Shown here piece after piece: positions 21,828 through 64,000 of a DNA stretch of 64,000 bases. Positions within the stretch are counted from its first letter, which is position 1; each line of letters starts with the position of its first letter. The notes beneath the pieces are model-generated. The model did no database searches. It saw only the letters and a program-made list of their open reading frames with translations, and was not told the origin of the DNA. Made by a program: the position numbers and the translations under genes. This DNA comes from an uncultured Acidobacteriota bacterium (lineage in GTDB: Bacteria > Acidobacteriota > Vicinamibacteria > Vicinamibacterales > UBA2999), in the NCBI GenBank assembly GCA_963751025.1, contig CAVVTC010000005.1:312304-376303 (forward strand), given 5' to 3'.

Positions 21828-22826
21828 CTATCTCGGAATCCAGTGTGTCCTGGGTGGCGCGGACGGCCCGGACAGCTTGGCGATGTCGGCGTCCACCATC
21901 ATCGCGACCAGCCCCTCGAACGAGACGGTCGGCTGCCACCCGAACGCCTGCGTCGCCTTCGCGGCGTCACCGATCAGGTGATCGACCTCGGCGGGGCGAA
22001 TCAGCGACGGGTCGGTGCGGACATGCTTCTGCCAGTCCAGACCGGCGTGGCCAAAGGCCGCCTCGACGAGGTTCTTGACGGAGTGGCTGACACCGGTCGC
22101 GATCACGTAGTCGTCGGCCTTGTCCTGCTGCAGCATCAGCCACATCGCCCGCACGTAGTCGCCAGCAAAGCCCCAGTCGCGGCAGGCGTCGAGGTTGCCG
22201 AGCGACAGGTGATCGGCCAGGCCGAGCTTGATGCGGGCAACCCCGTCGGTCACCTTGCGCGTGACGAACTCGTGCCCGCGGCGCGGCGACTCGTGATTGA
22301 ACAGGATCCCCGACACCGCAAACATCCCGTAGCTCTCGCGGTAGTTCACGGTGATGTAGTGGCCGAACACCTTGGAGACGCCGTAGGGACTTCGCGGATA
22401 GAACGGCGTGAGCTCGGTCTGCGGCACTTCCCTGACTCGTCCGTACATCTCGCTCGAAGACGCCTGATACAGACGGATCCCGACGTCCACCTGCCGAACG
22501 GCCTCGAGCAGGCGCGTGACGCCCATCGAGTTGTAGTCGCCGGTCAGCAGCGGTTGATCCCAGGAGGCCGGCACGAACGACATCGCCGCCAGGTTGTACA
22601 GCTCATGGGGCTTGACGTCCGACACGATCCGCATCAGCGACTGCTGATCCAGCAGATCACCCGGACGCAGCGTGATGCGATCGAGCAGGTGCTCGATCCG
22701 CCACAGATTCGGGGCGCTCGAGCGGCGGATGACGCCGGTGACTTCGTAGCCCTTTTCGAGGAGCAGCTCCGCGAGATACGAACCGTCCTGCCCGGTGATT
22801 CCGGTGATGACCGCGCGCTTAGACAT
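21828..22826 (-). CDS. gmd: GDP-mannose 4,6-dehydratase
   Basis: Intact, 332 aa. Motifs are [43 protein letters not shown] and [10 protein letters not shown]. Confidence 0.95.
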
Positions 22827-22837
22827 GAACTGTCATT

Positions 22838-23701
22838 CTATCCTCGTCCCTCCAGCCATCGCCGGAGCGCATCGCGCCACGTCGGCATCGCGAACCCGGT
22901 CGCCGCCAGCTTCCTGGTCGAGAGCGCGCAGTAGCGCGGGCGCGGAACCTTCAGCGGCATCTGGTCCACGGTGATCGGGACCAGACGCGGCTCGATGCCG
23001 AGAATCGCCGCGACCTCGCCGGCCACCTCGAACCAGCTCGCCTGTCCGTCGTTGACACAGTGATACAGGCCAGCCGGCGCCTCGCTCGCCACGAGATGCC
23101 GGGTCGCCGCGGCGACATCCTTCGAGTAACTGGGCGAGACAATCCGGTCGGTGAACACCTTCACGTCCCGCCCCTGCCGGATGCCATCGACGATGTGATC
23201 GAGGGTGCCGCGGCGGCCGGTCCAGCCGGCCGGCGATCCGAACAGGCTCTCGACCCGGAGCACATACGCCCGCGGGACCTCGAGCGCGAACCATTCGCCC
23301 AGCAGCTTGGACGAGGCGTACACACCGGAGGGCGACGGCCGTACGTCTTCGTCGTGGGGCTCGGTGCTCTGGCTGTTGAGGACGAAGTCGGAGCTGTAGT
23401 GCACCAGCATCGCGCCCGCGGCCTCGGCCGCGCGGGCCAGGCTGCGCACGGCCAGCGCGTTGATCGCCAGCGCCTCGCTGGCCCGGTTCTCGGCGCCATC
23501 CACATCGTTGAACGCGGCGCAGTTGACGATGAGGTCTGGCGCGGCGGCGGCGACCGCCGCAGCCACAGCGCCGGCATCGGTCACGTCCAGCGACTGGCGC
23601 GTGAACGCCGTCACCTCGCGATCGGCAAACGCCTGGAGGATAAAGGCGGCGAGCTGTCCGTTGGCCCCTGTGACGAGGACGCGATCGATCGGCAAGATCA
23701 A
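22838..23701 (-). CDS. RmlD-fold NAD(P)-dependent 4-keto-6-deoxy-sugar reductase. Next to gmd, it is likely a GDP-4-keto-6-deoxymannose reductase.
   Basis: TTG start at 23701. Motifs are [31 protein letters not shown] and YASSKLLGE. The frame is intact. Confidence 0.75.
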
Positions 23702-23717
23702 TAATCGTAATTCAGAG

Positions 23718-24809
23718 ATGGAACAGATCGACACCGTCGTGATCGGCGCCGGCGTGGTCGGACTCGCGGCGGCGTGGTCGCTCGCCGAGCGCGGCCACAG
23801 CGTCTGCGTCCTCGAACGCGAGCCTCGCGCCGGCATGGGCACGAGCACGCACAACAGTCAGGTCATTCATGCCGGCATGTACTATCCGGCCGGCAGCCTC
23901 AAGGCGCGCCACTGCGTCAACGGCGCGCGAATGCTGTACGAATTCTGTGGCAGGCACGGCGTGCCGCACGCCCGAAGCGGCAAGCTGATCGTCGCGCACG
24001 ACGACACGGAGGTCGAGGCGCTCGAGGCGATCCGGCAGCGCGGCGAGGTCAACGGCGTCGAAGGCCTCCGGCTGGTGGACCAGACATTCATCCGCGCGCG
24101 CGAGCCGCACGTGGCCGCGCGCACGGCGCTGTTCTCGCCGAATACCGGCATGCTCGAAGCGGAGGCGCTGGTGCGGACCCTGGTGCGGCTCTGCACCGAT
24201 CGGGACGTGGCGGTGCTTCCCGGCTCACCGCTCGTGGGCGCCGATTCGCGGGCCGACGGCGTCGAGCTGCGCACGAGGGCGGAAACGATCGTCGCGCGAG
24301 CGGTCGTCAACGCCGCCGGCCTCTACGCCGACGAGGTCTCGGCCATGCTCGACGGACAGACGTTCCGGATCTACCCGTGCCGGGGCGAGTACGCCGAGCT
24401 CGTGCCCGCAAAGCGCGGGTTCGTGAACGGCCTCGTCTACCCTCTGCCGCACACGCACGGCCTCGGCGTCCACCTGACCAAGACCATCGCCGGCAACGTC
24501 ACGCTCGGTCCGACGGTGTGCTATCAGAACCGGAAGGACGACTACGAGGACAACCGGCTCCCGATCGAGGCGTTCCTGGAACCGGCACAGCGGCTCCTGC
24601 CCGAGCTGCGGCTGGACGATCTCCGGCTCGGTGGCAGCGGCATTCGAGCGAAGCTCCACCCTCCTGAGCAGTCGTTCTCGGATTTTCTGATTGCGAGGGA
24701 TGAGAAGAACCCGCGCCTGGTTCAGGCCGCGGGCATCGAGTCGCCGGGGCTCACGTCATGCCTGGCGATTGGGGAGCACGTGGCGGGGCTGGTCGAGGAG
24801 ATTCTGTGA
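23718..24809 (+). CDS. FAD-dependent oxidoreductase, L-2-hydroxyglutarate-oxidase-like (LhgO/DAO family)
   Basis: Intact. Motifs are [29 protein letters not shown] and [17 protein letters not shown]. This is the only plus-strand gene in this stretch. Confidence 0.75.
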
Positions 24810-24987: not shown

Positions 24988-25840
24988 GACCTTTCGCAGC
25001 TGCCACCAACAGCTCGCGTCGAGCAGCACGCGCGCGAGTACACGCTTCGGATTGAGCGCACCCGGCGCCACATGCGTCGCGTAGTAGAGATACGCGCTCT
25101 CGTGGAACGCCTTGATCGACGCCGCGCGCGCCGTTCGGCTCGAATGGCCGACGCGATGCACCGCGGTGGCTGCGGGCACGTAGCGCACCTCGTGGCCGCG
25201 CGCACGCAGGCGGCGGCAGAGGTCGGCATCCTCCCAGTAGAGAAAGTAGCGCGGGTCGAACCCGTCCACCTCGTCGAACGCACTCCGGCGCACGAGCATG
25301 CAGGCGCCCGACACCCAGTCCACGACCGTGCTCTCGCGGCCGCTGGCCGTCGTGACGACATTGCGCGTTGCGGCCGACGATGATGGCAGCAGTCGCCGCA
25401 GCGGGCTGGTGCGACCGAAGAGTCCGGTGAGCATGTCCGGATCGCCGCGCGCGCTTCCCTGCACCGAGCCGTCAGGGTCGAGCACGCGCGGTCCGACGAT
25501 CGCGCGCCGCGGATGCGCCTCGAGCTCGGCCCGCATCGCGGCGACCGCCCCGCGCGCGAGCGCGGCAGTCGGGGTTGATGATCAGCACGAGCGGCGCGCT
25601 CGACGCGGCAACGCCCTGGTTGACGCCGCGGCCGAACCCGACGTTGGCCGTGTTCCGCACGATGCGCGCGTGAGGCGCGAACTCCGCGGCGATGTCGGCG
25701 CTGCCGTCCTCCGACGCGTTGTCCACGACCACGGCTTCCCATGCCCGGCCGGTCATCTCGTCGGCAATCGATCGCAGCGCCGCGCGGAGCTCGTCCCCGG
25801 CGTTGTAGTTGACGATCACCGCCGCCAGCTCCGGCGTCAC
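24985..25840 (-). CDS. Family 2 glycosyltransferase (second of a pair), with a frame change near 25540
   Basis: GTG 25840 overlaps the upstream stop (GTGA). Motifs are AAVIVNYNAGDEL, VVVDNASEDGS, ANVGFGRGVNQG and IINPDC, then YWEDADLCRR in the next frame. Confidence 0.8.
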
Positions 25841-26845
25841 CGGTTGTCTCCGGCCAGATCCAGATCGAACTGCTTCTCGCGCCGCTTCGTCGCCAGCCAG
25901 CGCGGCTCGAGGAGCGGCCAGATCGCATCGGCGCCCACGCGTCGTGTCCGCTGGACGTGGCCGCGCTTGCGAAGCAGACGCGGCAGGCCCGCGAGCGCCG
26001 ACCACTTGGCGCGGAGAAAAGGACCGAGCAGGCCCGATGCGCGTGAAGTGCACGGCCGCGGCGGCCGTGTAGACCAGGTGCCCGGGCATCGTCCGCAGCA
26101 GCAGCCACGCCGGCGTGTTCTTGAGATACATCCACTCGAGGTTGCGCTGACCGTGAAAGACGGCGAACGGGCTGATGCGTCCGAGCGTCGCGCTGCCGTG
26201 ATGCCGCACCACGGCGTCGGCCACATAGCGGCACCGGTAGCCGAGCAGCCGCGCACGATAGGAGAGATCGACGTCCTCGTGCGAGACGAAGAAGTCCTCG
26301 TCGAATCCGCCGAGCTCGTCGAACACCTGTCTGGGAATCACGCACGCCGCGCCGCAGACGCCGAACACCTCACCCGATTCCGTGGCGGCATCGACGCTGG
26401 CGCCGTGGTGCCGCTTGAAGGCGCCGCCCCATCGCAGCAGGCCGTCGCCGGCGCTGTCGATGACACGTGGATCGTGCATGTAGACGATGCGGGACGTCGC
26501 CAGCGCGTTGGGGCCACCGGCGTCGCGGCCGCGCAGCAGCGCCTGCAGCCATCCGGGCTCCGGCACGGTGTCGTTGTTGAGCAGGACCACGAAGCGGCCG
26601 CGCGCCTCGCGCACGCCGGCGTTGTTGCCGCCGGCAAAGCCGCGGTTGTCGTTCAGCGCGACCAGCCGGACCCACGGGAACCGCTCGCGCACGAACGCGG
26701 CCGTGCCGTCAGTGGATCCGTTGTCCACGAGAAGCGTCTCGGCATCCACGCCCTGCTGGGCGGCGACTGCCGTCAGGCACGCCTCCAGATACTGGCGCCC
26801 GTTCCAGCTGACGATCACGATCGAGGCGAGCGGCTCGTTGCTCAT
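25837..26845 (-). CDS. Family 2 glycosyltransferase (first of a pair), with a frame change near 26035
   Basis: Motifs are SIVIVSWNGRQYLEACL, LLVDNGSTDGT, NDNRGFAGGNN, LLNNDT and HEDVDLSYR. The C-terminal end continues in the frame of ORF 25837..26256. Confidence 0.8.
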
Positions 26846-27958
26846 CGCGCCGGACGACTGTCCGCAACCTGTCGATACACGTCGAGGGTGAGGCGTGCCG
26901 TGCGCGCCCACGTGAACTCCGACGCCCGCGCCAGGCCGGCCGCGCGCATCCGTCCTCTGTGCCACTCGTCAGTGATCACCCGCGCAATCTCCGTCCGCCC
27001 AGCCGGGTTCGTCGTCGGGATCCAGCAGCACACCAGCCTCGCCGAGCACTTCGGGGATCGACGCGGCACGCGACGCGATCACCGGCGTGCCGCAGGCCAT
27101 GGCCTCGAGCACCGGCAGACCGAAGCCTTCATAGCGCGACGGATACACGAGCGCCGCCGCACTTCGATACAAGCGTCAGGAGTTGGGCGTCGGTCACCGT
27201 GCCGAGACAGACCACCGCGTCAGGCGAGTTCGCCTCCCGTGCGTACGCCCGTAGACGATCGCCGATGCCGCGATCGACGCCCGCCAGCGCCAGTGACAAG
27301 CGGCGGCATACCGGGGCGTCGCTGCGCCTCGAGCATGGCATCGAACGACCAGCGGCAGGTTGCGCCGCTCGTGCAGGTCGCCGACGTGCAGCAGGAACGG
27401 CGTCGTCAGACCTGCCGGCAGCGCGTCCCTCGTCGTGCCGTCCGCGGGTGTGAAGTGACTGGACACGCCCAGCGGCGCCACGGTGATCCGTTCGCGCGGA
27501 ATCGAATACGCGGCGGCGATCTCGCCGGCCGAGAACTCGGAATCGGTCAGCACGTGCGCGGCCGCGTGTGCGCTGCGGCGATAGAAGAGGCGGCGCAGCC
27601 CGTCGCGGCGGTACGGATACCACTCCGGGTGACGCTCGTAGCTGACGTCGTGAATGGTCACGACAAGGGGAACGCTCGACCACAGTGGCGCGGTGTACGC
27701 CGGGGCATGAATCACATCGACGCGGGCCCGGGCTGCCGCGCGCGGGAGGCCCACGGTGCTCCAGCCGAGATTCGTCGGCGGATGCCGCGGCTCGTCGATA
27801 CGACCGAGACCCGCGGGCACGGCATCGCGCGATCCGCCGAGCGCCACCAACTCGAGATCCCCGCCCACGGCTCTCAGCGCCGGTACAAGCCCGGAAACGT
27901 ATCGCCGCACGCCGGCCGCCGGTGAGCTGAAACTGCGGCCGTCGATGCCGACGCGAAG
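26842..27958 (-). CDS. Family 4 (GT-B) glycosyltransferase, with at least 3 frame changes and no canonical start at the conserved N-terminus
   Basis: [21 protein letters not shown].. begins directly after an in-frame TAG at the edge of repeat B. Later come [11 protein letters not shown] and [26 protein letters not shown] (E-x7-E). The stop overlaps the next ATG (ATGA, 26842-26845). Confidence 0.75.
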
Positions 27959-28151
27959 CTACCTGACGTGACTGACTGCGCATGACTTCACATGTCCACG
28001 AACCGCGGAGACGCGGAGACGCGGAGGCTTTCTTCCGTCAATGACTGCACGTGCAGTCACCAAGAAAAGAATCCTCCGCGCCTCCGCGCCTCCGCGGTTT
28101 CGTGAACAAGAGCAGTCACGTGCAGTCATCGTGAGCAGCATGTGCGAGTCA
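27959..28151. repeat. Copy B of the ~180-bp palindromic element, inverted relative to copy A
   Basis: The sequence is gtgactgactgcgcatgacttcacatg..cgcggagacgcggagacgcggagg..gactgcacgtgcagtc..cctccgcgcctccgcgcctccgcgg..cagtcacgtgcagtcatcgtgagc..gagtcac. It occupies the whole spacer between the GT4 N-terminus and the stop at 28149. Confidence 0.85.
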
Positions 28152-29942
28152 CGTAATCTCCATGTGAAGCGGCGCACTGGCCGCTCCAGCGCCGCGCACA
28201 CCTGCCGGATCTGCACTTCGACGTTGCCGTTGATCGCCGGGCTGCTGAGGACCACTTCGTCCACCCTGTAGGCGCGCATCACCTGCTCGAGCTGATCGAG
28301 CGGACCGTGCACCGGCACGCCGACGATCCAGCGGTGCGCCTTCAGCGGGTCGTCGTCGATGAATCCAATCGGGTTCATGCTCCAGGCGGCATTGGCGCGC
28401 ATCTCGCGCACCAGCAGCTGGCCGAAGCCGCCGGCGCCGTAGACGAGGACGCGGCGGCTCTGCTTGTTGCGCGTCCGAGGCCACCAGGTTCATCATCTGG
28501 AACGACACGCGCGTGGTGATGATGGCCGCGGCCAGCAGCAGCGCGTCGAGGACGAACACGACGCGCGAGAACCCTCGCCGCGATAGAGGTAGTACGAGGC
28601 CACCACCGCCAGCAGCGATCCGATGCCCACGCCCCGGACGACCGCCGTGAGATCGCGCAGGCCGAACGTCTCCCACGATCGCTGATAGAGACCGGAGCCG
28701 TAGCAGCGCCGCGAGCTTGCACCCGAGCACGACGGGCAGCGAGGCGGTGAAGTACGGCAGGAACGGGTCGAGGCTCTCGCCGTCGAAACGCAGCCGGTAG
28801 GCGGCGTAGTAGCACACCGTGATGAGGACGAGATCGAGCAGCACCTGACCGGCATGCCAGCGGAACGCCAGGTCCTTGAGAAACGGCGCGAACGACGACT
28901 TCTGCAGCGCGACGAAGTCCTGCGCGTTGTAGGCCGGCACGCGCGCGAGGTAGATGCCGATCAGGATGACGATCACGCCGAACAGCGCGACGAACGGCAG
29001 CATCGGCTCGACGGCGCTGAATTTCTGCAGCCCCCACGCGGTCATGCCGCCGACCAGGCCGAAGAGATACAGAATCCGCACCGCGCTCCGCTCGGAGAAG
29101 CCGAGCGACACCAGCCGATGCGAGACGTGATCGGTGCCGCCCTTGCTCGCCTTGCGCCCGGCGAGCCGCCGCAGCACCAGCACGAACGCCGTGTCGAACA
29201 GCGGCACGACGAGGATCAGCACGACGAGCACCGCCGGGCTGACGAACGCGACGCGGGCGTTGAAGATCGGCACGAGCGAGGCGCCGGCCAGCACCGCGCC
29301 GATGAACAGGCTTCCGCAGTCGCCCATGAACAGCCGCGCCCGCGGACGGTTCCAGTAGAGGAACCCGACCAGCGCGCCGGCCAGCGCGACGAGCAGCAGG
29401 ACCAGCATCGAGCCGAGCGAGGGAGCCAGGAGCGCGGCGAGAAACGCCGTGGCGATGAGCGCCACGCCCGTCGCCAGGCCGTCCATGTTGTCGAGCAGGT
29501 TCAGCGCATGGCACATGCCGGCGAACCACACCGTACCGAGCAGCGTGTAGCTCCACGGCAGCGCGCCGGCCGGCTCCGCTCCCGCGAGCGCGAAGACCAG
29601 GAAGGCGCCGATCGCCAGCGACGCGACCAGCTTGGCAATCGGCGACAGCTGCAGGCGGTCGTCGAAGAAGCCGACCACGAACATCGCCAGCGCCGCCAGG
29701 AGCACCCACGCCCACGCCGACGCCTGCGACGCGGAGTCCGGGCTGATCAGGCCCACGATCGTGAACCCGACGATGGTCGCCAGCGCGATCGCGATCCCGC
29801 CCATCGTCGGCGTCGGCTTGGTGCTCCAGCGATCCGGCCGCGGCGGGACGACCGCGCCGATCACCGGCGCGACGCGGCGCACGGCGGCACCGAGCGCAAC
29901 GGCTGTCGCCGTGGCGATCACGAAGCTGAGGAGAGCAATCAC
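28149..29942 (-). CDS. WecA/MraY-family polyprenyl-phosphate N-acetylhexosamine-1-phosphate transferase. It is fused to a C-terminal TM + Rossmann-like extension. There are at least 3 frame changes and the 3' end is ambiguous (28149, or read-through to 27959).
   Basis: Motifs are FFDDRLQLSP, NLLDNMDGLA, FMGDCGSLFIG and VPLFDTAFVLVLR. Extra TM helices follow. Then RRVLVYGAGGFGQLLVREMRANAAWSMNPIGFIDDDPLKAHRWIVGVPVHGPLDQLEQVMRAYRVDEVVLSSP. Confidence 0.8.
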   Translation of the reverse strand: MIALLSFVIATATAVALGAAVRRVAPVIGAVVPPRPDRWSTKPTPTMGGIAIALATIVGFTIVGLISPDSASQASAWAWVLLAALAMFVVGFFDDRLQLSPIAKLVASLAIGAFLVFALAGAEPAGALPWSYTLLGTVWFAGMCHALNLLDNMDGLATGVALIATAFLAALLAPSLGSMLVLLLVALAGALVGFLYWNRPRARLFMGDCGSLFIGAVLAGASLVPIFNARVAFVSPAVLVVLILVVPLFDTAFVLVLRRLAGRKASKGGTDHVSHRLVSLGFSERSAVRILYLFGLVGGMTAWGLQKFSAVEPMLPFVALFGVIVILIGIYLARVPAYNAQDFVALQKSSFAPFLKDLAFRWHAGQVLLDLVLITVCYYAAYRLRFDGESLDPFLPYFTASLPVVLGCKLAALLRLRSLSAIVGDVRPARSHGGRPGRGHRIAAGGGGLVLPLSRRGFSRVVFVLDALLLAAAIITTRVSFQMMNLVASDAQQAEPPRPRLRRRRLRPAAGARDARQCRLEHEPDWIHRRRPAEGAPLDRRRAGARSARSARAGDARLQGGRSGPQQPGDQRQRRSADPAGVRGAGAASAPLHMEIT

Positions 29943-29958
29943 AAAGCGGATGTGTAAA

Positions 29959-31675: not shown

Positions 31676-32358
31676 GCCGGGCGCGCCCCGATCGATCAGG
31701 CGGGCAAACTCCTCGGCCGACGGCAGCTCGCTGAAGGCGCGCCACGGACGATGCGATTCGAGCTCGTCGAGCGTGTAGCCGCCGGTCGCGACCGCAATCG
31801 TCCTCGCGCCGATGGCGTTGGCGCACTCGATGTCGTGCGGCGTGTCGCCGATGACGAACACGCCATCATCGGCAACCGGACCCGCCGCGCGCGCCAGCTC
31901 CAGCGCGCGTGTGGCAATGCGTCGCCCGGTCGCCCGCGTCCTCGGCGAACGCGCCGTCGAGGAAGTAGTGGAACAGGTCGTAGTGCGTGAGCTTGGCGCG
32001 GGCGCCGCCGCGCGTGTTGCCGGTGAGCAGGTACGACCGGACGTCGGTCCGGCCGCGCAGGTGCTCGAGAATCTCGCGCACGTTCGGGAGCACGCGGCCC
32101 TGTTTCTTTGGCAGCTCCGTCGGCAGCAGCTCCTCGTAGCGGCCGACCATTCGCCGGATGGTCGCCTCGTCGGCTGGGACCTCGAGCATCTCGAACGTGC
32201 GAACGGCGATCTGATAGTCGGTCAGGCCGGCCACTCGAAACGACGACAGCTGGAAATCCCGCTGGACGATCTCGTAGACGGCCTGCTCCCACGCCGGTAC
32301 GCCTGCCTTGCCGGTCGTCAGCAGCGTGCCGTCGATGTCCCAGAACAGATACGATCAT
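31672..32358 (-). CDS. HAD-superfamily phosphatase, with at least 2 frame changes. The stop is inferred from the ATGA overlap at 31672-31675.
   Basis: ATG 32358, then after a shift YLFWDIDGTLLTTGKAG (DxDxT), LLTGNTR and VIGDTPHDIECANAIGARTIAVATG. Confidence 0.7.
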
Positions 32359-34306: not shown

Positions 34307-34346
34307 CAGCGTCGGGCGGGTCCTGCCTTTCGGACCCGCCGGTCCT

Positions 34347-49600: not shown

Positions 49601-49601
49601 A

Positions 49602-50830: not shown

Positions 50831-50839
50831 TCTGTCCGC

Positions 50840-55968: not shown

Positions 55969-56402
55969 GGACGCGTCACGCCGCTACACTCGAGCACCGC
56001 CGACTCGGGCTTGTATCGATCGAGGACCTCGCCCATGTCCTCGTCCTCTTCGAGCTGGGCGAGGCATCGCAACTGCTGCCACACCGCCGGCTCCGGCCGC
56101 GGTGCGGACCAGAGGATGACTTCAGCGACCTCCGGCCGCCCGGAGGCGATTGCCGCCTCGAGCGGCGTCAGCTCGGCTCGATCGTTGAACAGGAGATCCG
56201 CGCGTACCTCGCGGCGTTGATAGGGGTCCTCGCCTCGGCGAATCAACCGCACGACCGTCGCCGGATCGCGCAGGGCCGCGGCCTCTGACAGATTGACCGG
56301 CTCGACGCGCCAGAGCGGATGGGTACCAACGACCGCGCGAAGCAACATGCCCGCGGTGAGGACGCCGAGATACGCAGCGGGCAGCGCGGCCGCCGCGATC
56401 AT
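55959..56402 (-). CDS. Small TM-anchored ankyrin-like protein, copy 2
   Basis: ATG 56402 lies within the double stop TGATGA of Q2. The sequence is MIAAAALPAAYLGVLTAGMLL, then ..EAAALRDPATVVRLIRRGEDP....LTPLEAAIASGRPEVAEVIL. Confidence 0.5.
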   Translation of the reverse strand: MIAAAALPAAYLGVLTAGMLLRAVVGTHPLWRVEPVNLSEAAALRDPATVVRLIRRGEDPYQRREVRADLLFNDRAELTPLEAAIASGRPEVAEVILWSAPRPEPAVWQQLRCLAQLEEDEDMGEVLDRYKPESAVLECSGVTRPWK

Positions 56403-57839
56403 CAGTCGCCGTACCACTGGCTCCTCCACTCGGGGACCATCTGCGGATTGGGCACATCGGTGTCGAGCGCGGTCGTCTCTCAGCCCCTCGACGAGCGCCC
56501 GCGGCGCCGCGTCCGAGGGCCATCGGCCTTCCCGCTGCCACTTGATCGGCAACTCCGCCCAGTCGTTGCGCGTTCTGAACGCGTGCTCGTTCATCACGTG
56601 ATGCACGCCCGAGCTGCGCATCGCCCACGCCGATCCGAGCGCCAGCATGGCGATGGACACGACCGCGGCGCGCATGAATCCGCCGCCCTGTCCGTACTCG
56701 AGCACCGCGCGTACAGAGGCAAACGCCGCAATCGCGTAGAACACGCCGGCCACGGCGATGATGTCGTCCTTCGCGTACGAGAAAGACAGCGCGGCGTTGG
56801 CCACCAGCACCACGACAGCGACGATCGCCAGCCGGCCGCTCCGGCCGAGCGTTGCCCGCTTTCTCCACGAGGCTCTCCACCAGGCGAAGGCTGTCCACGC
56901 CATCACGACGGTCATCGCCAGCGACGACAGAACCGTGAGATAGGCATGCGGGTGAACGTCGCCGCCGCGCCACGCGCGGGTCGCGACGAAGAGGCCATCG
57001 CGCGGCTCCGAGAACAGCACGGACAGTATCGAGGCGACGACGTTGTAGGCGTAGAACACGAACGCCCGATCGCCGAACCGCTGCTGGAGCTCCGACGGCT
57101 CCAGGCGTTCGAGAAAGTATCCCGAGGTCCGCTCGGTCAGGGACGGCAGGCCGGTGTCGAGATACCAGAATCGCAGCACGAAGTACCCGGCGAGGAGGGC
57201 GGTCACCAGCACGAGCCCGCGAGCCGAGACGCCGCGCAGCCCGGCCATCCACGCGGTCGCGATCACGACCCAGATCAGCACGCCTGACTCGAGCGTCAGT
57301 GCCGCGAAGACGAAGGTGATCGCAGCCAGCAGGTCGATCAGCCAGCCCCTCCAACCGGCTCGGGGCACGCCGCCATTGGAGAGCGTGAGATTCAACGCGA
57401 TCAGGACGAGGACCGCGATCTCGAGGAAGTGGTTGATCGGGAACGCCTCGCGCAGGAATCCCAGGAAGGTGTGCAGGCCGGTCAGCACCGTCAGCGCCAC
57501 CGCGGCGGCGGCCGCATCGAGCGGCGACTCGATCGGCAGCGCGCGCACGAACAGCCAGATCAGCGCGACGATGAGCAGCGCGTGGAAGCCGCGATAGACG
57601 AGGCGATAGTGCCCCTGGGACAGATCGAAAAGGGCCTTGATCTGGGCGATGCGCAGCGGGCGGAGATAGGACGTCGTGCCGACCGCGTTCCCGAAGGAGG
57701 TGGCGACCGATGGCGAGGCCTGCGCGTCGAGGAGCTCGGTCAGCGCGTCGGAGGGCTGCACCGGCATGCGCCAGAGATCGAACGCGATCGCTGAGGCGAG
57801 CACTCCAGCCAGCACCAGGACGGCGGCGCGGCTGCTCAC
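56402..57839 (-). CDS. Q-family polytopic membrane protein, paralog Q2, with a frame change near 56440
   Basis: Motifs are YLRPLRIAQIKALFDLSQGHY, REAFPINHFL, TLESGVLIWV, PSLTERTSGYF, LEPSEL and FYAYNVVASILSVLFSEPRDG. After the shift the tail reads LDTDVPNPQMVPEWRSQWYGD. Confidence 0.6.
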
Positions 57840-57861: not shown

Positions 57862-58539
57862 TCAGCCGGACCGCCCTTTCACCTTCTCGAGCACGAGCAC
57901 GCGGCCCTTCTTGCCCCAGTCCATCCGCTCCTCGAGATCCGGCCGCGAGCGGCAGCCCTCGAGCACGAACATCAGCCGCAGCATGTCCTTGTTGAGCAGC
58001 GTGATGTGCGAGGGGTCCAGATCGTCGCTCGTGTTGAAGTCGAGCAGCGTCGGCGGGTTCGGGTGGAACCGCGTCGTGACGTAGATGAACTTCGAGGTCA
58101 GGCGCACCATGTTGGCGACCGCCTTCTTCACCTCGAGCACCGTCAGGTGCTCCAGCACCTCGCGGCAGATGACGAGGTCGTACGAGCCGTCCTTCTTGAT
58201 CGAGGCGTCGGTCGCATCGCCGATCGCAATGCGGTCCCTGACCTCCGGCGTCGCCAGCTTCAGGCTCATCTCGTTGTAGTCGATGCCGTCGGCTTCGACG
58301 CCAATCTCCTGCAGCAGGTGCATCAGCGCGCCGGGTCCGCAGCCGAGGTCGATCACACGCGTCGGCTGGAAGACGTCTTTGATGAGCTGCGGATTCTTCG
58401 CCTCGATGCGGCGGCGCGTCTCCAGCGAGTAGTTGTTGTCGCCGGCGCGCCATTCGCCCAGCCAGTAGTTCTCGTCGTAGTGCTGTTGCGCCGTCGGCTT
58501 CTGTGCGAAGACGGCGGCTTCGAACTCGGTGATGGTCAT
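57862..58539 (-). CDS. Class I SAM-dependent methyltransferase
   Basis: Intact, 225 aa. Motif I is VIDLGCGPGALM, with later YDLVICREVLEHL. Confidence 0.8.
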   Translation of the reverse strand: MTITEFEAAVFAQKPTAQQHYDENYWLGEWRAGDNNYSLETRRRIEAKNPQLIKDVFQPTRVIDLGCGPGALMHLLQEIGVEADGIDYNEMSLKLATPEVRDRIAIGDATDASIKKDGSYDLVICREVLEHLTVLEVKKAVANMVRLTSKFIYVTTRFHPNPPTLLDFNTSDDLDPSHITLLNKDMLRLMFVLEGCRSRPDLEERMDWGKKGRVLVLEKVKGRSG

Positions 58540-58989
58540 TGCGTGGTTCTGCTGCTCCTGCGGCGAACTGTTGAAGAAGGCGGCTCGACGAATCCAGCAC
58601 GGTGTCGAGATAGACGATCTCGATGCCGTGCTCGCGGCAGATGACGGCCTGCTCGGGCGGCAGGCCGCGCGCGCGCCAGTCGCTTCCCTTCACGTAGTAG
58701 CGCGGGCGCAGCTGCCGCAGGACGGTCTCGGTGTCGATCTCGTAGATGTGCACGTAGTCGATGTAGCGGATCGCGTCGATGACCGTGGCGCGCTGCGTTT
58801 CGGTCAGCAGCGGCCGATGCTTGGTGCGGACGTAGCGGTCGGACGCGACGTTGCACAACACCGGCACGCCCAGCTCGCGCGCCGCCTTGAAGTACTCGAT
58901 GTGGCCGTGGTGCAGCGGGTCGAAGGCGCCGTCCACCATCGCCACCTGGCTCGCGGTAGTCCACCAGCTGCGTCGAACGTCAGAATCAC
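58536..58989 (-). CDS. Cytidylyl/adenylyl-transferase-like nucleotidyltransferase (TagD/RfaE-domain-II type), with at least 2 frame changes
   Basis: GTG 58989 overlaps the upstream stop (GTGA). Motifs are VDGAFDPLHHGHIEYFKAARELG (HxGH) and YVKGSDW. The stop is inferred from the ATGA overlap with the next gene. Confidence 0.7.
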
Positions 58990-60131
58990 GACTTGACCAG
59001 CAGCCCCTTCTGCTTGAGCTCGTCGAGCGCGCGATCGAAGAAGTCGGTGGCGACGTCAGGCGTGGTCTTCGCCCACTCGACCAGCTCCGAGAATCCCTGA
59101 TCGAGCGTCACCTTCGGCTGGAACCCAAGCGTCGTCTTCGCGCGCGTGATGTCGGCGGTGTTGTGCCGGATGTCGAACTTCCGGCCGGCCTGGGTCACCT
59201 ACGGCTCGATCGACTTGCCCAGGATGCGGTTGAGCGTGTTCGCGATCTCGAGGATCGTCACCGTCTCCCCCGAGCCGACGTTGACCGGCAGGAAGTCGGC
59301 GCCCGGCGTCTCGATCATCAGCACCAGGCAGTCCACGACGTCGTGAATCGACACGAAGTCGCGAAGCTGCCCGCCGTCCTCGAACACCACCGGCTGGCTT
59401 GATCGTTCAGCAGGCGACTCAGCCAGATGGCGGCAACGCCCGCGTACGGGTTGCTCAGGCTCTGCCGCGGGCCGTAGACGTTGAAGAAGCGCGGCGCGAC
59501 CGACGGGATGCCGTAGGTCTTGCCGATGAGCAGCACCATCTCTTCCTGGTGCAGCTTGGTCATCGAGTAGATGTTGTCGCGGTAGAGCGGCTTGTCCTCC
59601 GGCGTCGGGACCGACTGCGACGTGCTCGCGGCACATCGGGCAGCGCTGCTCCCAGTCGCGCGCGGCGAGCTGCTCTTCCGGATCGAATCGTCGGCGCCAC
59701 CGCGCCGTGCGTCGGCGCAGCGATAGGCGCCTTCGCCGTAGACGCCGATCGACGAGGCGACGAGCACCTTCTCGACGTGGTGCTTGGCGTTGACGAGGAT
59801 GTCGAGCAGCAGCGCCGTGCCGCGCGTGTTGACGTCCACGTAGCGATCGACCTGATACATGCTCTGGCCGACGCTCACCGCCGCGCCGAAGTGCACGACG
59901 GCATCGGCCGCGAGCACCAGCGGCTCGAACACCGCGCGGTCGCGCACGTCGCCGCGCACGTAGCGTCGCCTTCGGGTTGGCGTACGACGGCCACGTGCCG
60001 GAGCGATGGACCTGCGGCTCGAGGTTGTCGAGCACGGTGACGCTGGTAGCTCGCGCGCGACGAGCGCGTCGACGAGATGCGAGCCGATGTAGCCGGCGCC
60101 GCCGGTGACGAGGATCGTGACGAATGCTCAT
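58986..60131 (-). CDS. NAD-dependent sugar epimerase/dehydratase with a Cys-rich insert, with at least 4 frame changes
   Basis: Motifs are ILVTGGAGYIGSHLV, VTVLDNLEPQV, SSIGVYGEG, YSMTKLHQE, FFNVYGPRQ and RDFVSIHDV. The insert reads ..YRCA...RDWEQRCPMC.. in alternative frames. Confidence 0.75.
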
Positions 60132-61177
60132 GCGGTGTGTGACTCTCTCGTGGATCGGATCGTGGACGGTGCGTCGGCCGCACGTCGAGCAGCGCGTGCG
60201 GCGCCGATGCGATCGAGCGCCGAGCGCGCCATCACCAGGTGCCGCTGCGAGAAGCCGTCGGGATCGGCAAAGTACGCCGTCGAGCGGACGCCGAGGAACG
60301 GCGCCAGATACGAGAAGCCGCCGTAGGTGCCGACGAACGCCGACGCGCCGGCCGACGACCGCCGTCTGCAGCGCGAGATTCTCACGCGGATGCATGTCGG
60401 CGGCAGCGTCTGCACGCCGATGGCGTCCGCACACGTCACCGTCGTGATCGTCGAGCCGAAGCCCGGTGGCCAGCGAGACGACCGGGCCGCGGTCGCGCAG
60501 CGACCTGAAGCGTGCGTCGCGCGAAGGCGCGATTCTCGCGCGTGTCGGGAAAGCAGTCGTTGAAGTAGAACTTCACCGCGGTGTACGGCGATGCGGGCCG
60601 CCTGAAGGCGGCGCCCACGTTCGGCCCCGGCGTCGTCCGGCGGCGAGCGGCGCGTACGTCGTGAACCGATGCACCCACTCTTCCTGCACGTGTCCCCACC
60701 AGAACGGATTGAACAGTCGGTACATCGTCGACGGGTGCAGCATCGAGCGGCTGTGGACGTCCGTGGTGAGCTCGCGCAGCAGCTGACGCTCGAACGCCAG
60801 CACCTGCGTCTGCTTCTGCTCGCCGTTGGCCGCGACGCGCTCGTCGTGCCGCTGCCGGAACTCCTCGGGCGTCAGATAGTCGAAGATGTCGCGATAGCCG
60901 GCGGCAAACGGCCGATACCAGGCGGCCGTGCCGCCGCGCGAGACGATCAGCAGGCGTTCCGGCGCGACGCGAAACGTTCGGCGAACCAGCGCAGGAACGG
61001 CACCCAATAGAGCAGCTCGAAACCGACCTCGCCGAGCCACGGGCCGACGACGATCGTGTCGCGGCCCGCGGCCAGCCGGCCGAGATCCGACGCCAGGCGG
61101 CTCGCATGGACCTTCGCCAGCTGCGCGCTGATGCCGTGACGGATCGATCGCGGCACGAGCTGCCGCACGATGTTCAT
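60128..61177 (-). CDS. R-family hypothetical protein, paralog R2, with at least 3 frame changes
   Basis: Motifs are VVGPWLGEVGFELLYWVPFLRWF, LLIVSRGG, NGEQKQ, YTAVKFYFNDCFPD and FVGTYGGFSYLAPFLGV. The stop overlaps the next ATG (ATGA). Confidence 0.55.
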
Positions 61178-61208
61178 GGCTTTACGTTAGACGCAGAGAC
61201 GAGGCCCG

Positions 61209-61913
61209 TCACTGAGCGCCCCGATCCTGGAGCCGGCGCTCGGCTTCGGCCCAGTCGTCTGGAGTGTCAATCGACAGCGAGTCTGCGGCGTGGACGAGGA
61301 GCGGCTGGCAGCGCTCGCCGTAGATGGTGCCGAAGCGATCGAGCGTCGCGCGCCAGCACGCGTAGACGGTGCCGTCTCGCGAGTAGGCCGGCCGCGCATC
61401 CTGGCGACGGGTCAGCGCGCGCTCCCTCGGGCAGGAACGGCCGCAGCACGCCCGTCCTCGATGCGCATCACGTAGTCGGGCGACAGATGCCTGGGCAGCT
61501 CGACCACGGTCACGACCGAGTCGGCCTTCGTCTCGCGCAGCATCGTCACGGCGTCGCGCACGTGCGAGGGACGGCGAAGCGGCGAGGTCGGCTGCAGCAG
61601 CACGATCACGTCAGGCGTCCAGCCGCTCGCGGACAGCGCGTCGATCGCGTGCCGCACGACCGGCAGCATCGGCGTGTCGTCGGCGGCCAGCGACGCGGGC
61701 CGCATGAACGGGACCTCGAGACCGGACCGTCGGCCCGCGTCGGCGATCTCGTCGGAGTCGGTCGAGAGCACGATCCGATCGATCACGCCCGACTCACGCG
61801 CGGCGCGCGCGGTGTACTCGATGAGCGGCCGGCCGGCCAGCGGCCGAACGTTCTTTCCGGGCACGCCCTTCGATCCGCCCCGGGCCGGCACGATGGCGAG
61901 GACGTCGACTCAC
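61209..61913 (-). CDS. Acylneuraminate-type cytidylyltransferase, copy 2, with at least 3 frame changes
   Basis: GTG 61913 overlaps the P6 stop (GTGA). Motifs are LAIVPARGGSKGVPGKN, VLSTDSDEIA and LLQPTSPLR. Later come VLRPFLPEGA.. and ..SLSIDTPDDWAEAERRL, ending at TGA (complement of 61209-61211). Confidence 0.75.
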
Positions 61914-63519
61914 CGGTAACACAACCAGCCGGTCGCAGGGTCGTGCCCGACCGCGAGCGCCTGGCTGAACGCGAGCGTGATCCGCGGCCATCCTCCGTGT
62001 TCAGCGCAACCCGGTCGGGGAAGTGTTGCTCGAGATACACCCCGAGTTCGCCAAACCTGGCCACGACGCCCTCGGCCGACGGCGACAGGAGGACCGCGAC
62101 CGGTACGCGCTGCGCTGCGAGCCGGCGCATCACTTCGCGATGGTCCTCATCCCGTGTCAGCAGTCCCGGCTGAAACCACGCCTGCCCGCCAGCGAACGGG
62201 CGGCGGGCCCACACGAACACCTCGGGAGCGTACGCCGGGAGCAGGATGTGATCGCGGCGGTCGAGACACCGATCGGCGTACTCGAGAAATGGCATGAGCG
62301 CCGAGGCCACGGCAGACGGCATCTGGGCCTGCGGAAAGCGCTCGTGCAATTCCGCCGTGCGGGCTCGCGCGTGATCCCACAGTCGGGCCAGGCCGCCAAG
62401 CATCTCGGCCTTCTCGAGTTGTTCCTTCGTGGAGGAGATGACCGTCGCGCTCGCCAGCGTGACCGTGACGAGGGCCGTGGCGGCGACCCATGCCAGGCCA
62501 CGGCCCCTGAGGGAGTGCATTCGCATGGCTCCCGCGAGCAGCCATCCGAGGAGCAGGGACACCGGCACGATCGCGTCCGGCAGTCGAGCCGAGATGGTGT
62601 CCCGAATCAGCCCGGCATTCGCCAGTACCGCCACCACGATCAAGGGCACCACCATCGAGCGTTCGAGTGGATCGGGATGACGGGGCCAGCGCATCCACAC
62701 GACGATGGCCGCGCACACCGGCAGCAGATGAAAGAAGAAGAACAGCCAGGGGACCGCGTTCGAGTCCAGCAGACTGCCATCGAACGCGAACTCCGGTATC
62801 GTGCGGCCTCGCGAGCTCTCGACCGCCTGCAGCTCGATGCCGCGCATGAGGTGCCGCCACAGCCCGTCGTGCGTCGCCACGAACATGATGTACGGCGAGA
62901 GCATCAGGAGCACTGCGCCGCTGAACGTCATCGCGGTGCGCAGGACCGTCTTGCCATCCACCGTCATCCCCACCAGGACGACGGTCAGCAGACTGCCGAC
63001 GCCAAGGTAGAACCCGTGGTCGTGCCGCAGCCCGAAGGCCAGGACGACGACGGCGGCCAGCTGCGCCAGGCGCGACAGCGACGGGCGCTCCACGTATCGC
63101 CACATCACCAGGAAGCCCGCTGCATACGCCAGGATCTTGGGATAGCTGTAGGTCCGCGGGAAAATCACGACCTCGAGCGCCACGACGAGCACCGCGATCC
63201 ACCACGAGCCGGTGAGCCGCCGCGCCGCGTAGAGCGTGAGCACTGCGGCCAGACCGAACATCAGCGCGACGAGCACGGCTTCGCCGAAGAGCGGGGCATC
63301 GGGAAGGGTCCAGAACGGAATCGCCGACAGCAGCTCCATCAGCGGCAGGCCGAACTCCACGTAGTCGCGCGACGGCAACTCCCCCATGGAGATCTGCTGA
63401 CCCGCCGCCACGTGCATGTAGTGATCGTTCGAGAATCCTGCGACTGACAGGTACCGGAAGACCCCGACAAGGAGTCCCAATGCCACCGCGATCGCCACTC
63501 GGATCGTCCGGTGCTTCAT
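61910..63519 (-). CDS. P-family polytopic membrane protein, paralog P6, with a frame change near 61985
   Basis: Motifs are FRYLSVAGFSNDHY, GELPSRDYVE, RTYSYPKI, AFGLRHDH, IRDTISARLPD and CLDRRDHILLPAYAPEV..RPFAGGQAWFQPG. After the shift the end reads ITLAFSQALAVGHDPATGWLCYR. Confidence 0.7.
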
Positions 63520-64000
63520 CGAGGCCCTGGCGCGTTCTGCACGTACCGGATCTCACGAAACAGATCGGCGACGCTGGTCGGATCGGGCAGCGCCTGAGGC
63601 GCCGGCTGCGTCGGGCGGCACAGGTAGCTGACATGCAGGTGATCGGCCGCGTAGGCCACGCGCATGCCTTCGAATCCCGCCCGCCGCAGGTACGCGGTCA
63701 TCGTGTCCTGCGTCAGGTAGTACGGGTGATCGATCTTGGTCGCGTCCTCCACCGACCAGTTCCGCAGATACGCCGCCCGGAAGTCCACGATGTCGATGAA
63801 CAGGTAGCCGTTCGGTGTGAGCAGCTCGCGCACGCGCTTCAGCGTGCCGGCCACGTCCAGCAGGTGATCGACCGTCTGGCAGATCAGCACGACGTCGAAG
63901 CGGCGGCCGCCGAAGTCGTGCTCCTCGACCAGCCCGGTGATCGTCTCGAGACCGAAGGCGCGGGCCTCCTGCACCTCGAGCGGCGCCGGATCGATCAGCG
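63516..64000 (-). CDS. Class I SAM-dependent methyltransferase, C-terminal part. The N-terminus lies beyond the window end.
   Basis: The frame is open to base 64000. Motifs are FDVVLICQTVDHLLD, LLTPNGYLFIDIVDF and IDHPYYL. The stop overlaps the P6 ATG. Confidence 0.7.
   Translation of the reverse strand, partial: LIDPAPLEVQEARAFGLETITGLVEEHDFGGRRFDVVLICQTVDHLLDVAGTLKRVRELLTPNGYLFIDIVDFRAAYLRNWSVEDATKIDHPYYLTQDTMTAYLRRAGFEGMRVAYAADHLHVSYLCRPTQPAPQALPDPTSVADLFREIRYVQNAPGPR

Follow-up and report, generated by a model that had tools for sequence, protein, structure and literature searches.

How a Gram-negative bacterium might assemble a surface glycan from a locus rich in candidate membrane glycosyltransferases and lacking any recognisable flippase, polymerase or exporter is the question raised by a stretch of DNA from an uncultured Acidobacteriota bacterium of the Vicinamibacterales (lineage UBA2999; assembly GCA_963751025.1, contig CAVVTC010000005.1, positions 312,304–376,303 of the forward strand). 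This whole stretch, 64,000 nucleotides long, is referred to here as the window, and an earlier note made from its sequence had pointed to the interval 21828–64000 as a glycan cluster. That interval makes up roughly the downstream two-thirds of a cell-envelope glycan locus that exceeds 55 kb. The reading that we favour, with a probability of roughly 0.55, is that assembly of a glycan takes place in the cytoplasm, on a lipid primed by the WecA-type enzyme, and that the glycan is then glycosylated repeatedly in the periplasm in the style of the Arn and Gtr systems, with the transport genes located elsewhere. A search of the literature found no description of a locus of this type.

Owing to frame changes within genes, the raw open reading frames (ORFs) of the window are fragmented or falsely fused; one ORF of 626 residues (55959–57839), for example, is a false fusion of the genes named Q1 and S1 below. 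ORF calling by a third-position GC filter alone was misleading on account of these frameshifts, and a codon-usage hidden Markov model (HMM) and frame-chained pseudo-proteins were used instead. Annotation is based on frame-chained translations or on clean orthologues, whose proteins were mapped onto the window using tblastn, and families are called unannotated when they have no match in Pfam and NCBIfam. Related loci are designated L001, L002 and so on.

Candidate GT-C glycosyltransferases

The eight large, uncharacterised polytopic proteins counted in the earlier note are real and total about 12.6 kb. They comprise five paralogues of a family P, two of a family Q and a single protein with a DE motif (DE), and none of the three has a Pfam or NCBIfam match. 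The P genes, all on the minus strand, are P1 (61913–63519, with one frame break near the 3′ end), P2 (54308–55976, two frame breaks, delimited by the codon HMM and tblastn), P3 (52662–54305, intact in a single frame, its start overlapping the P2 stop codon), P4 (43452–45076, two frame breaks, placed by tblastn) and P5 (39598–41298, intact). P1 displays 26–34% identity to the other P paralogues, and P3 and P4 display 29% and 36% identity to P5, respectively. Even at permissive thresholds, no match to the P family was found in Pfam, NCBIfam or the PDB sequences, the PMT, PMT_2 and STT3 families included. The approximately 180 scored homologues of P5 are all ‘hypothetical’ without a Pfam domain, and their named sources are Vicinamibacterales or Acidobacteriota.

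The structure of P5 was modelled using AlphaFold2 from a 51-sequence alignment, with a predicted local distance difference test score (pLDDT) of 88.5 and a predicted TM-score (pTM) of 0.89. The model has about 11–13 long helices within residues 23–419 and a C-terminal alpha/beta domain of ~130 residues, and hydropathy indicates 9–12 transmembrane helices in all P paralogues. When the model was compared with the PDB using Foldseek, the top 31 matches were all GT-C enzymes (probability 1.00, E-values down to 7e-6, TM-scores of 0.32–0.48), with STT3, AglB, PglB, DPY19, AftA, ArnT, Pmt4, ALG3, ALG9 and EmbA/B/C represented, and non-GT-C (transporter) matches had TM-scores near 0.1. The P family is thus predicted with high confidence to have a GT-C fold of subclass GT-C(A). 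The motif GFDGDHF, in which D48 is found in at least 90% of sequences and D50 is invariant, lies together with R69–D70 in the loop of residues 39–98 after the first transmembrane helix; because the N-terminus carries five lysine or arginine residues and no acidic ones, this loop is predicted to be periplasmic. The only two P cysteines, C446 (invariant) and C565 (in at least 90% of sequences), are both located in the C-terminal domain, an arrangement that would fit a periplasmic disulfide.

Of the two Q proteins, Q1 (56405–57839, minus strand) is a polytopic protein of 478 residues and Q2 (51277–52678, minus strand, one frame break) shares 39% identity with it. Q1 has about 700 scored homologues, again all ‘hypothetical’ without a Pfam domain and with Vicinamibacterales or Acidobacteriota as named sources. 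Its AlphaFold2 model (pLDDT 89.3, pTM 0.91) matched AglB, AftA, Pmt4, EmbA and ArnT with Foldseek probabilities of 0.97–1.0 and TM-scores of 0.41–0.46, and EmbB with a probability of 0.91 and a TM-score of 0.39, at E-values (6e-3 to 0.13) weaker than those of P; the SEDS proteins RodA and FtsW reached TM-scores of 0.23–0.24. Two residues, D31 and E35, are invariant in the loop 24–60 after the first transmembrane helix. In the relatives P0216, P0229 and P0240, Q carries a fused N-terminal GT2 domain, best matched in the PDB by DPMS, ArnC and GtrB, and since this cytoplasmic domain directly precedes the first transmembrane helix, the loop would lie outside the cytoplasm. Likewise, a GtrB-like gene stands immediately before Q in L100, and in L006 a Pfam PMT_2 GT-C occupies the slot of Q1. 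A GT-C fold is predicted for the Q family with high confidence from the model, and the earlier note's suggestion that P and Q are GT-C-like is borne out, as both models match only GT-C enzymes at meaningful TM-scores.

Each Q gene is followed on the minus strand by a gene for a small protein with one transmembrane helix, S1 (55962–56417) after Q1 and its paralogue S2 (50843–51277) after Q2, both located by tblastn. These proteins are about 145–155 residues long with a weak ankyrin-like signal (E=0.23). A Q gene always precedes them, in the window and in relatives (the pairing is kept in L004, L005, L077 and L100), and S may be an accessory subunit of Q.

DE is encoded on the plus strand (41789–43320; about 500 residues, one frame break near 42665) and has 192 homologues of 485–520 residues, none annotated, from Vicinamibacterales or Acidobacteriota where the source is named. 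About 9–11 transmembrane helices are predicted, with an invariant D48-E49...W53-H54 motif just after the first of them and two invariant cysteines, C432 and C506, in the C-terminal domain. On these sequence features DE is a suspected GT-C; hhalign and profile searches gave no link from DE to P, Q, the PMT_2 protein of L006 or the PDB.

Sister loci contain a fourth unannotated polytopic family, U400 (394–426 residues, 8–10 transmembrane helices), often encoded between a short-chain dehydrogenase/reductase (SDR) gene and an aldehyde dehydrogenase gene. The window holds a relic of the deleted gene, 17 residues long, RYFTEWFPYYAWINNAP (36650–36700, minus strand), with 88% identity by tblastn to residues 337–353 of the 394-residue L008 protein. 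A full U400 gene is found in the same slot in L005, L008 and L012, L002 shares the relic and L004 retains a different fragment. As the gene was lost, U400 is evidently dispensable in this lineage. No relationship among P, Q, DE and U400 was detected by hhalign, and profile searches of the PDB with these four families returned chance-level matches only.

An Arn/Gtr-style module and the missing transport genes

The block 48216–43452 (minus strand) shares its order of functions with the Arn system (PmrHFIJKLM), the aminoarabinose pathway of lipid A. It encodes a LegB/RmlB-like nucleotide-sugar 4,6-dehydratase (Epi2, 47189–48216; Pfam GDP_Man_Dehyd, with NCBIfam support), a PseC/ArnB-type sugar aminotransferase (DegT, 46029–47189; Pfam DegT E=2e-104, NCBIfam PseC E=1.5e-90 and ArnB E=1e-78), a GtrB/ArnC-type polyprenyl-phosphate glycosyltransferase consisting of a GT2 domain and C-terminal transmembrane helices (45084–46024), and the predicted GT-C-fold protein P4. 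The polyprenyl-phosphate-sugar synthase, described as ArnC-like in the earlier note, fully deserves that description: it aligns over its full length, C-terminal helices included, to GtrB (PDB 5EKP, E=2e-48) and ArnC (9BHC, E=6e-32), and also matches DPMS (5MLZ) and the NCBIfam models PgfS and ArnC. P4 (from 45076) starts just downstream of the synthase (to 45084), and the two are also adjacent in L004, L008, L012 and L014. Furthermore, L100 and L110 carry Formyl_trans_N and Polysacc_deac_1 genes that resemble the formyltransferase domain of ArnA and the deformylase ArnD. Unlike in the Arn system, P4 has no detectable sequence similarity to ArnT (GT83/PMT_2), the locus has no ArnE/F-type SMR flippase and the module sits within a stretch of over 55 kb that codes for another seven GT-C candidates. 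The dehydratase, moreover, is LegB/RmlB-like rather than ArnA-like, and the sugar of the module is therefore probably a 4-amino-4,6-dideoxyhexose and not 4-amino-4-deoxy-L-arabinose (L-Ara4N).

Three-component periplasmic glycosylation is known from the GtrA/GtrB/Gtr* and GT136 pentofuranose systems (Kelly et al., 2024; PMC11127046), where the GT-C families are often new to CAZy. The present locus is similar in that a GtrB-type synthase (E=2e-48) adjoins a GT-C enzyme and that the backbone is initiated separately by a WecA-type enzyme. It differs in having eight GT-C candidates of three families instead of one, and in the GT2–Q fusions of synthase and GT-C in relatives, an arrangement not described in PMC11127046. 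It also differs in that the flippase component is missing from the visible locus. For GtrA, ArnE/F-type SMR and MATE flippases there was no Pfam match and no small multi-helix ORF in the six frames of 21–64 kb, and none was found in the 13 kb upstream (contig L036).

Position 64000 is not a boundary of the locus, as the operon runs at least 13 kb further upstream on orthologous contigs. In L003, upstream of the gene truncated at the window end (MT1) stand genes for a NeuC-type UDP-GlcNAc 2-epimerase (which scores above the NCBIfam cut-off), a second NeuB with SAF domain (NeuB2) and a 496-residue protein without a Pfam match. The same co-directional operon of overlapping genes extends for at least 10 kb more on the short-read contig L036, with a 707-residue GT2-containing protein, an FkbM methyltransferase and further unannotated proteins of the families R and T (see below). 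Eight further relatives share the upstream arrangement, again without a transporter, and all of their contigs end before the upstream end of the locus. The downstream end lies inside the window, where the gene for GDP-mannose 4,6-dehydratase (GMD) is followed by a sortase gene and unrelated genes.

Genes for transport and polymerization were sought by profile searches of the frame-corrected proteins. Between 21.8 and 64 kb, Pfam and NCBIfam gave no match to Wzx/MurJ (Polysacc_synt), Wzy_C, Wzz, Poly_export/Wza/Wzc or ABC2_membrane; Wzx/Wzy/Wzz and Wzm/Wzt are absent also from the ~13 kb upstream on orthologous contigs, and neither an outer-membrane polysaccharide export protein (Poly_export/OPX) nor a tyrosine autokinase had a Pfam match anywhere in the window or L036. 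Apart from the membrane genes already assigned, a six-frame hydrophobicity scan turned up only 18 isolated hydrophobic 19-mers, never clustered, and hence no polytopic gene was missed through frame errors. The only polytopic proteins of the interval are P, Q, DE, the WecA-type enzyme and the tail of the synthase. The absence of Wzx, Wzy, Wzz, Wza/Wzc and Wzm/Wzt from the cluster, as reported in the earlier note, is therefore upheld. The result applies to the visible 42 kb and the 13 kb upstream of a locus that is cut by the window end, and because flippase and export genes are not encoded in either part, they must be elsewhere.

The earlier note had further held that the cluster does not look like a classical Wzx/Wzy or ABC pathway, and had proposed an inspection of the neighbours beyond 64000. 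Its view is supported by the absence of the canonical genes from the interval and, upstream, from the orthologous contigs, but it goes too far for the locus as a whole, since the window is truncated, the operon continues, and ABC-2 (Wzm-type) permease and ATPase genes are found near T in L095 and, in L017 and L028, beside P genes. The L028 operon, made up of a GT2_707-like gene, T, an ABC-2 permease and two ATPases, is divergent from two P-like genes, and the linkage in L017 and L095 is similar. ABC-dependent assembly of the backbone is plausible. In common with ABC-transporter-dependent O-antigen and capsule pathways, the locus has WecA-type initiation, no Wzy and candidates for multi-domain soluble transferases (a 903-residue T–R fusion here and GT2–R fusions elsewhere), to which the ABC-2 permease and ATPase genes of the three relatives may be added. 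Unlike in those pathways, Wzm/Wzt are absent from the window and the 13 kb upstream, and the single ABC system close by, which has a transglutaminase-like partner, is of the PF16949 type.

This nearby system is an operon of an ABC ATPase, a transglutaminase-core membrane protein and a PF16949 (ABC_tran_2) permease (10300–15371, minus strand), on the same strand as the glycan locus and 6.5–11.5 kb from its end. It was considered as the exporter of the locus and rejected, as its permease belongs to another family and thiS/thiG, methyltransferase and sortase genes intervene.

Gene content and models of assembly

Between 64000 and 21828, the minus strand carries every gene but two, those for DE and a FAD-dependent oxidoreductase of the DAO family (23718–24809, plus strand; Pfam DAO E=1.6e-67, NCBIfam). 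The codon HMM and tblastn of clean orthologues agree on this layout, which the earlier note had already given. The overlapping start and stop codons mentioned there are equally real, most neighbouring genes overlapping by 4 bp on the clean contigs L002, L003 and L036, and the comparison of synteny that it had called for showed the order of genes to be kept in at least 15 related loci.

In the order of transcription, the interval begins with the C-terminal half of MT1 (63519–64000), a class-I S-adenosylmethionine (SAM) methyltransferase (Pfam Methyltransf_23/11/12) whose gene runs off the window and whose L003 orthologue, 98% identical, has 309 residues on a clean contig. It is followed by P1; NeuA1, a PseF/NeuA-like CMP-nonulosonate cytidylyltransferase (61212–61903, two frame breaks; Pfam CTP_transf_3, and NCBIfam PseF E=2e-45 on the clean orthologue); R1; Epi1, a frame-broken NAD-dependent epimerase resembling heptose 6-epimerase or GalE (58993–60047; Pfam Epimerase E=3e-40, and NCBIfam on the clean orthologue); an RfaE domain-II-like sugar-1-phosphate nucleotidyltransferase (CTPl, 58541–58948; Pfam CTP_transf_like, NCBIfam rfaE_dom_II E=3.5e-25); the SAM methyltransferase MT2 (57865–58539; Pfam Methyltransf_25/11/23, tblastn); and then Q1, S1, P2, P3, Q2 and S2. 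After S2 come R2, a further SAM methyltransferase, MT3 (48369–49136; Pfam Methyltransf_25/11/31, tblastn), the dehydratase, aminotransferase and synthase of the module with P4, DE on the opposite strand, the small one-helix protein s166 (41315–41812; no NCBIfam match, located by tblastn), P5, and u307 (38685–39558), a conserved soluble protein without an NCBIfam match that always comes after the last P gene, also in relatives.

The next genes encode NeuB1, a nonulosonic/ulosonic acid synthase with SAF domain (37561–38621, two frame breaks; Pfam NeuB E=1e-74, NCBIfam NeuB E=3.5e-86), an SDR oxidoreductase (36732–37400; Pfam adh_short_C2), an aldehyde dehydrogenase (35164–36643; Pfam Aldedh E=3e-151), a second, frame-broken CMP-ulosonate cytidylyltransferase, NeuA2 (34350–35157; Pfam CTP_transf_3, NCBIfam PseF-like), a split transketolase with the N-terminal subunit first and the pyrimidine-binding/C-terminal subunit second (32358–34306; Pfam Transketolase_N, Transket_pyr and Transketolase_C), a HAD-family phosphatase (31679–32348; Pfam HAD_2) and u571, a conserved soluble protein of 571 residues (29962–31675, at least three frame breaks; sub-threshold Capsule_synth-like signal, E=0.13). 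The conserved block of NeuB, SDR, aldehyde dehydrogenase, cytidylyltransferase, split transketolase and HAD genes (32358–38621, minus strand) is an unusual set of ulosonic-acid enzymes, and may yield a non-standard CMP-activated sugar acid.

The last part of the interval holds the initiating enzyme, a WecA/MraY-family polyprenyl-phosphate N-acetylhexosamine-1-phosphate transferase with a CoA_binding_3 domain (28127–29960; Pfam Glycos_transf_4 (PF00953) E=2e-28 and CoA_binding_3, NCBIfam WecA and MraY), a GT4 (GT-B) glycosyltransferase (26860–27952; Pfam Glyco_transf_4 and Glycos_transf_1), two MftF/EpsD-like GT2 enzymes that are not of the GtrB type (together 24988–26854; GT2a, 25843–26854, and GT2b, 24988–25831; Pfam, NCBIfam), the oxidoreductase on the opposite strand, an RmlD-type 4-keto-6-deoxy-sugar reductase (22838–23854; NCBIfam rmlD, 230.6 bits, above the equivalog cut-off of 224) and GMD (21828–22826; NCBIfam gmd, 433 bits, above the equivalog cut-off of 415). 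The CoA_binding_3 domain lies C-terminal to the WecA/MraY-type enzyme, and is presumably more usual in WbaP/PglF-type proteins. For each of the enzymes that the earlier note had recognised (WecA/MraY, GT2/GT4, gmd with its reductase, the two epimerase/dehydratases, DegT, NeuB/NeuA, the ArnC-like enzyme and three methyltransferases), Pfam and NCBIfam agree with its assignment.

Two further families are soluble. R proteins, of about 340–430 residues with an invariant GPW..E.G.E.LYW.PF motif, are represented on the minus strand of the window by R1 (60048–61177; GPWLGEVGFELLYWVPFLRW motif, heavily frame-broken, assigned by paralogy) and R2 (49602–50885), and on L036 by three upstream copies (2989–4275, 5377–8088 and 8085–9335), giving at least five. 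R1 has no Pfam, NCBIfam or PDB match and R2 none in NCBIfam. The family comprises 1,333 representative clusters in a 50%-identity library, annotation was found in no library searched, and elsewhere R is fused to GT2 and to a sulfotransferase. R is probably a new glycosyltransferase or glycan-modifying domain. T proteins (about 500 residues) are encoded three times just upstream of the window (L036 9332–10822, 5377–6939 and 60–872), once in fusion with R in the 903-residue protein; their motifs RPHP and VVG(L)NTSAL(V)EA suggest the C-terminal domain of a GT-B enzyme, and their only match is Glyco_transf_4 at a sub-threshold E of 0.015. Permissive Pfam searches (E up to 10) of the unannotated families returned GT-B hints only, all sub-threshold (E=0.015–0.3), and profile searches of R, T, u307 and u571 against the PDB gave chance-level matches only.

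These genes can be arranged into a model. By homology, the WecA/MraY-type enzyme primes polyprenyl phosphate, and GMD and the RmlD-type reductase make up a pathway for a GDP-6-deoxyhexose. Two CMP-activated nonulosonic or ulosonic acids are provided for in the same sense, one by the series NeuB1–SDR–aldehyde dehydrogenase–NeuA2–transketolase–HAD and the other by NeuB2 and NeuC, just outside the window, together with NeuA1 inside it. Homology likewise assigns a heptose-like nucleotide sugar to the epimerase and the RfaE-II-like transferase and an amino-deoxy sugar to the 4,6-dehydratase and the PseC/ArnB-type aminotransferase, and three or four methyltransferases are encoded. The lipid-linked glycan would be extended in the cytoplasm from nucleotide sugars by GT4, the two GT2 enzymes, R, u307, u571 and, from upstream, T. 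The eight membrane enzymes (P and Q as predicted GT-C(A), DE as a suspected GT-C) may then add further sugars in the periplasm from polyprenyl-phosphate-linked donors. Dehydratase, aminotransferase, synthase and P4 would constitute one Arn/Gtr-style module; Q, which in relatives is fused to or placed beside a DPMS/ArnC-like GT2, would represent a second type. Flippases for the donors and the machinery that exports the main glycan would be encoded elsewhere, the latter likely in the form of an ABC-2 transporter such as those beside P or T in some relatives.

Several observations weigh against this model of cytoplasmic assembly followed by periplasmic glycosylation. The three-component scheme is incomplete without a GtrA, SMR or MATE flippase, and the window has one polyprenyl-phosphate-sugar synthase for eight GT-C candidates. 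The fold matches of P and Q, at TM-scores of 0.4–0.47 and 10–16% identity, define a superfamily and not a donor or acceptor, and P is matched best by oligosaccharyltransferases (GT66), enzymes with lipid-diphosphate-oligosaccharide donors. For R, T, u307 and u571, the designation as transferases draws only on context, fusions and the sub-threshold GT-B hints (E=0.015–0.3). Finally, a transporter may lie within the locus beyond the 13 kb covered upstream.

An unlikely, though serious, alternative is a disguised pathway of the Wzy or oligosaccharyltransferase type, in which one or more of the P, Q and DE proteins act on undecaprenyl-diphosphate-oligosaccharides as polymerase of repeat units, as ligase or as oligosaccharyltransferase delivering the glycan to a lipid or protein acceptor, instead of adding single sugars from polyprenyl-phosphate-monosaccharides; the missing polymerase would then be concealed in the unannotated families. 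Wzy-type polymerases, WaaL and SEDS proteins are themselves GT-C-class enzymes, and one polymerase clan (GT122–124) has a long loop near the N-terminus (PMC10920833), as do P and Q; a polymerase among P and Q is therefore possible despite the fold. In addition, the best P matches are STT3 and AglB (GT66), whose donor is of the diphosphate-oligosaccharide kind that WecA, GT4 and the GT2 enzymes would build, and the sister loci hold the further unannotated polytopic family U400, of which the window keeps only the relic. Against this, the five P and two Q paralogues show only 26–39% identity, and orthologues of each are retained from genome to genome, a pattern better suited to enzymes of differing specificity than to a single polymerase. 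Q has a DPMS/ArnC-like polyprenyl-phosphate-sugar synthase fused to it or next to it, P4 comes directly after the GtrB/ArnC homologue, and neither Wzx nor Wzz is present. The GT-C(B) enzymes RodA and FtsW match Q weakly (TM-scores of 0.23–0.24), and none of this subclass, WaaL included, is among the top 50 matches of P.

The model of the earlier note, in which a large part of the polymer is made at the membrane's outer face from polyprenyl-phosphate sugars, we regard as decidedly unlikely. Eight GT-C-type candidates share a single locus, a concentration that is otherwise characteristic of mycobacterial arabinan/lipoarabinomannan (LAM) loci; the interval has no Wzy, Wzz or ABC-2 gene; and a GtrB/ArnC-type synthase is present, with additional copies in relatives. 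An Arn-type logic, one of the examples named in the earlier note, is visible in the dehydratase, aminotransferase, synthase and P4. The claim that much of the polymer is made outside does not follow: the window has that one synthase to serve eight GT-C candidates, and most donors are nucleotide-activated (three cytidylyl- or nucleotidyltransferases, NeuB, GMD), the CMP- and GDP-sugars being donors used in the cytoplasm. Known or putative soluble transferases number at least ten (GT4, two GT2, five R, T, u307, u571 and the 707-residue GT2 protein), R and T occur in multi-domain fusions with GT2, and relatives have ABC-2 transporters in linkage with P or T genes. Multi-domain GT2 fusions are typical of the cytoplasmic polymerising enzymes of ABC-dependent pathways.

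The likeness to mycobacterial arabinogalactan and LAM synthesis (Emb, Aft, Mpt and PimE, with decaprenyl-phosphate-arabinose (DPA) and polyprenyl-phosphate-mannose (PPM) donors) consists in many GT-Cs for one glycoconjugate, the lack of Wzy, and the presence of AftA and EmbA/B/C among the structural matches of P and Q. The host here is instead a Gram-negative acidobacterium, its locus has no DPPR synthase or DprE-type donor pathway, most of the encoded donors are nucleotide sugars, and P and Q are much smaller than Emb and have no Emb carbohydrate-binding modules.

A more speculative idea, to which we give little credence, is that Q and possibly P are self-sufficient GT-Cs, each of which, with its fused or adjacent synthase, itself provides the route of the polyprenyl-phosphate-sugar to the periplasmic active site. 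If true, this would explain why GtrA, SMR and MATE flippases are lacking in loci of tens of kilobases in dozens of Vicinamibacterales genomes, and the locus would represent flippase-independent surface-glycan assembly by multiple GT-Cs in Gram-negative soil bacteria, with three new GT-C families as well as R and T.

The frame breaks bear on whether the system is functional at all. The window has a G+C content of 67%, and its coding signal, judged by the phase of third-position GC and the six-frame codon HMM, is near-continuous; the HMM shows the reading frame shifting every few hundred bases, with no stop codons at the junctions. Mapping of intact orthologous proteins revealed at least 24 in-gene frame changes spread over 15 genes. 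A single GDP_Man_Dehyd model (positions 2–331/332) crosses three frames at 48216–47189, and the Pfam models of NeuB, Aldedh, DegT and transketolase likewise carry on across junctions. On the contig ERZ25039469:contig_30896 (loci L002 and L003), 96–98% identical to the window, the genes are intact, as are orthologues in short-read assemblies, and L001, a third and equally close contig, is broken at positions other than those of the window. Because near-identical and short-read orthologous contigs carry intact genes, we take the frame breaks to be assembly indels and not pseudogenes. A decaying, non-functional locus with real pseudogenising mutations is accordingly extremely improbable, for despite the number of frame changes, the prevalence of 1-nt indels, mostly outside homopolymers, and the one genuine gene loss (the U400 relic), L002/L003 are intact and L001 is broken elsewhere, short-read orthologues are intact, the unrelated flank (1–21 kb) is frame-broken too, and codon bias is fully kept on either side of each break.

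The frequent 1-nt indels affect the whole window (1–64000), as seen for instance at 48216–47189, 31675–29962 and 38621–37561. An origin in homopolymers had been expected and was rejected, since only 3 of the 86 indels relative to L002 lie inside homopolymers of at least 3 nt; so few is unusual for long-read errors, and the indels are nevertheless assembly-specific. In L003 (11919–15158), P2 and P3 are called as one protein of 1079 residues on an otherwise clean contig. This fusion is probably an indel artefact, because the window has separate genes with overlapping stop and start codons and the P proteins of relatives are single-domain.

Neighbouring genes and significance

Adjoining GMD, a sortase-domain protein with a long C-terminal extension (20422–21682, minus strand; PF04203, E=2.5e-30) is worth noting in a Gram-negative phylum. 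At its start (1–2200, plus strand), the window encodes a truncated protein in which AMP-binding, phosphopantetheine-attachment and PlsC-type acyltransferase domains are fused. Scans of the window for tRNAs, Rfam families, promoters and terminators added nothing, and public assemblies yielded no exact match to the GMD and P1 proteins. One P-family locus, L021 (CAZGLC010000002.1), stems from a metagenome-assembled genome labelled ‘uncultured Bifidobacteriaceae’; the 28 other loci are from Acidobacteriota, and the L021 contig has probably been mis-binned.

N-glycosylation, O-mannosylation, lipid A modification and mycobacterial cell-wall synthesis are all the work of GT-C enzymes, and GT-C-based periplasmic glycosylation is known from Arn, Gtr, GT136 and Emb/Aft. 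New here are GT-C candidates outside the described Pfam and NCBIfam families. It is unusual for so many to be found in a single Gram-negative locus; a donor flippase is lacking, and fusions of synthase and GT-C occur. New GT-C families are rare and are usually found singly; in the present case three families absent from Pfam and NCBIfam (P, Q and DE), with eight genes, share one operon-like locus in an abundant and almost uncultured order of soil bacteria. A practical warning also follows, in that indel-rich long-read assemblies hide such genes from ordinary ORF-based annotation. If the predictions hold, these proteins would be founding members of new CAZy families, the natural fusion of synthase and GT-C would allow the hand-over of lipid-linked donors to be studied, and the locus would be a case of periplasmic glycosylation without any known donor flippase.

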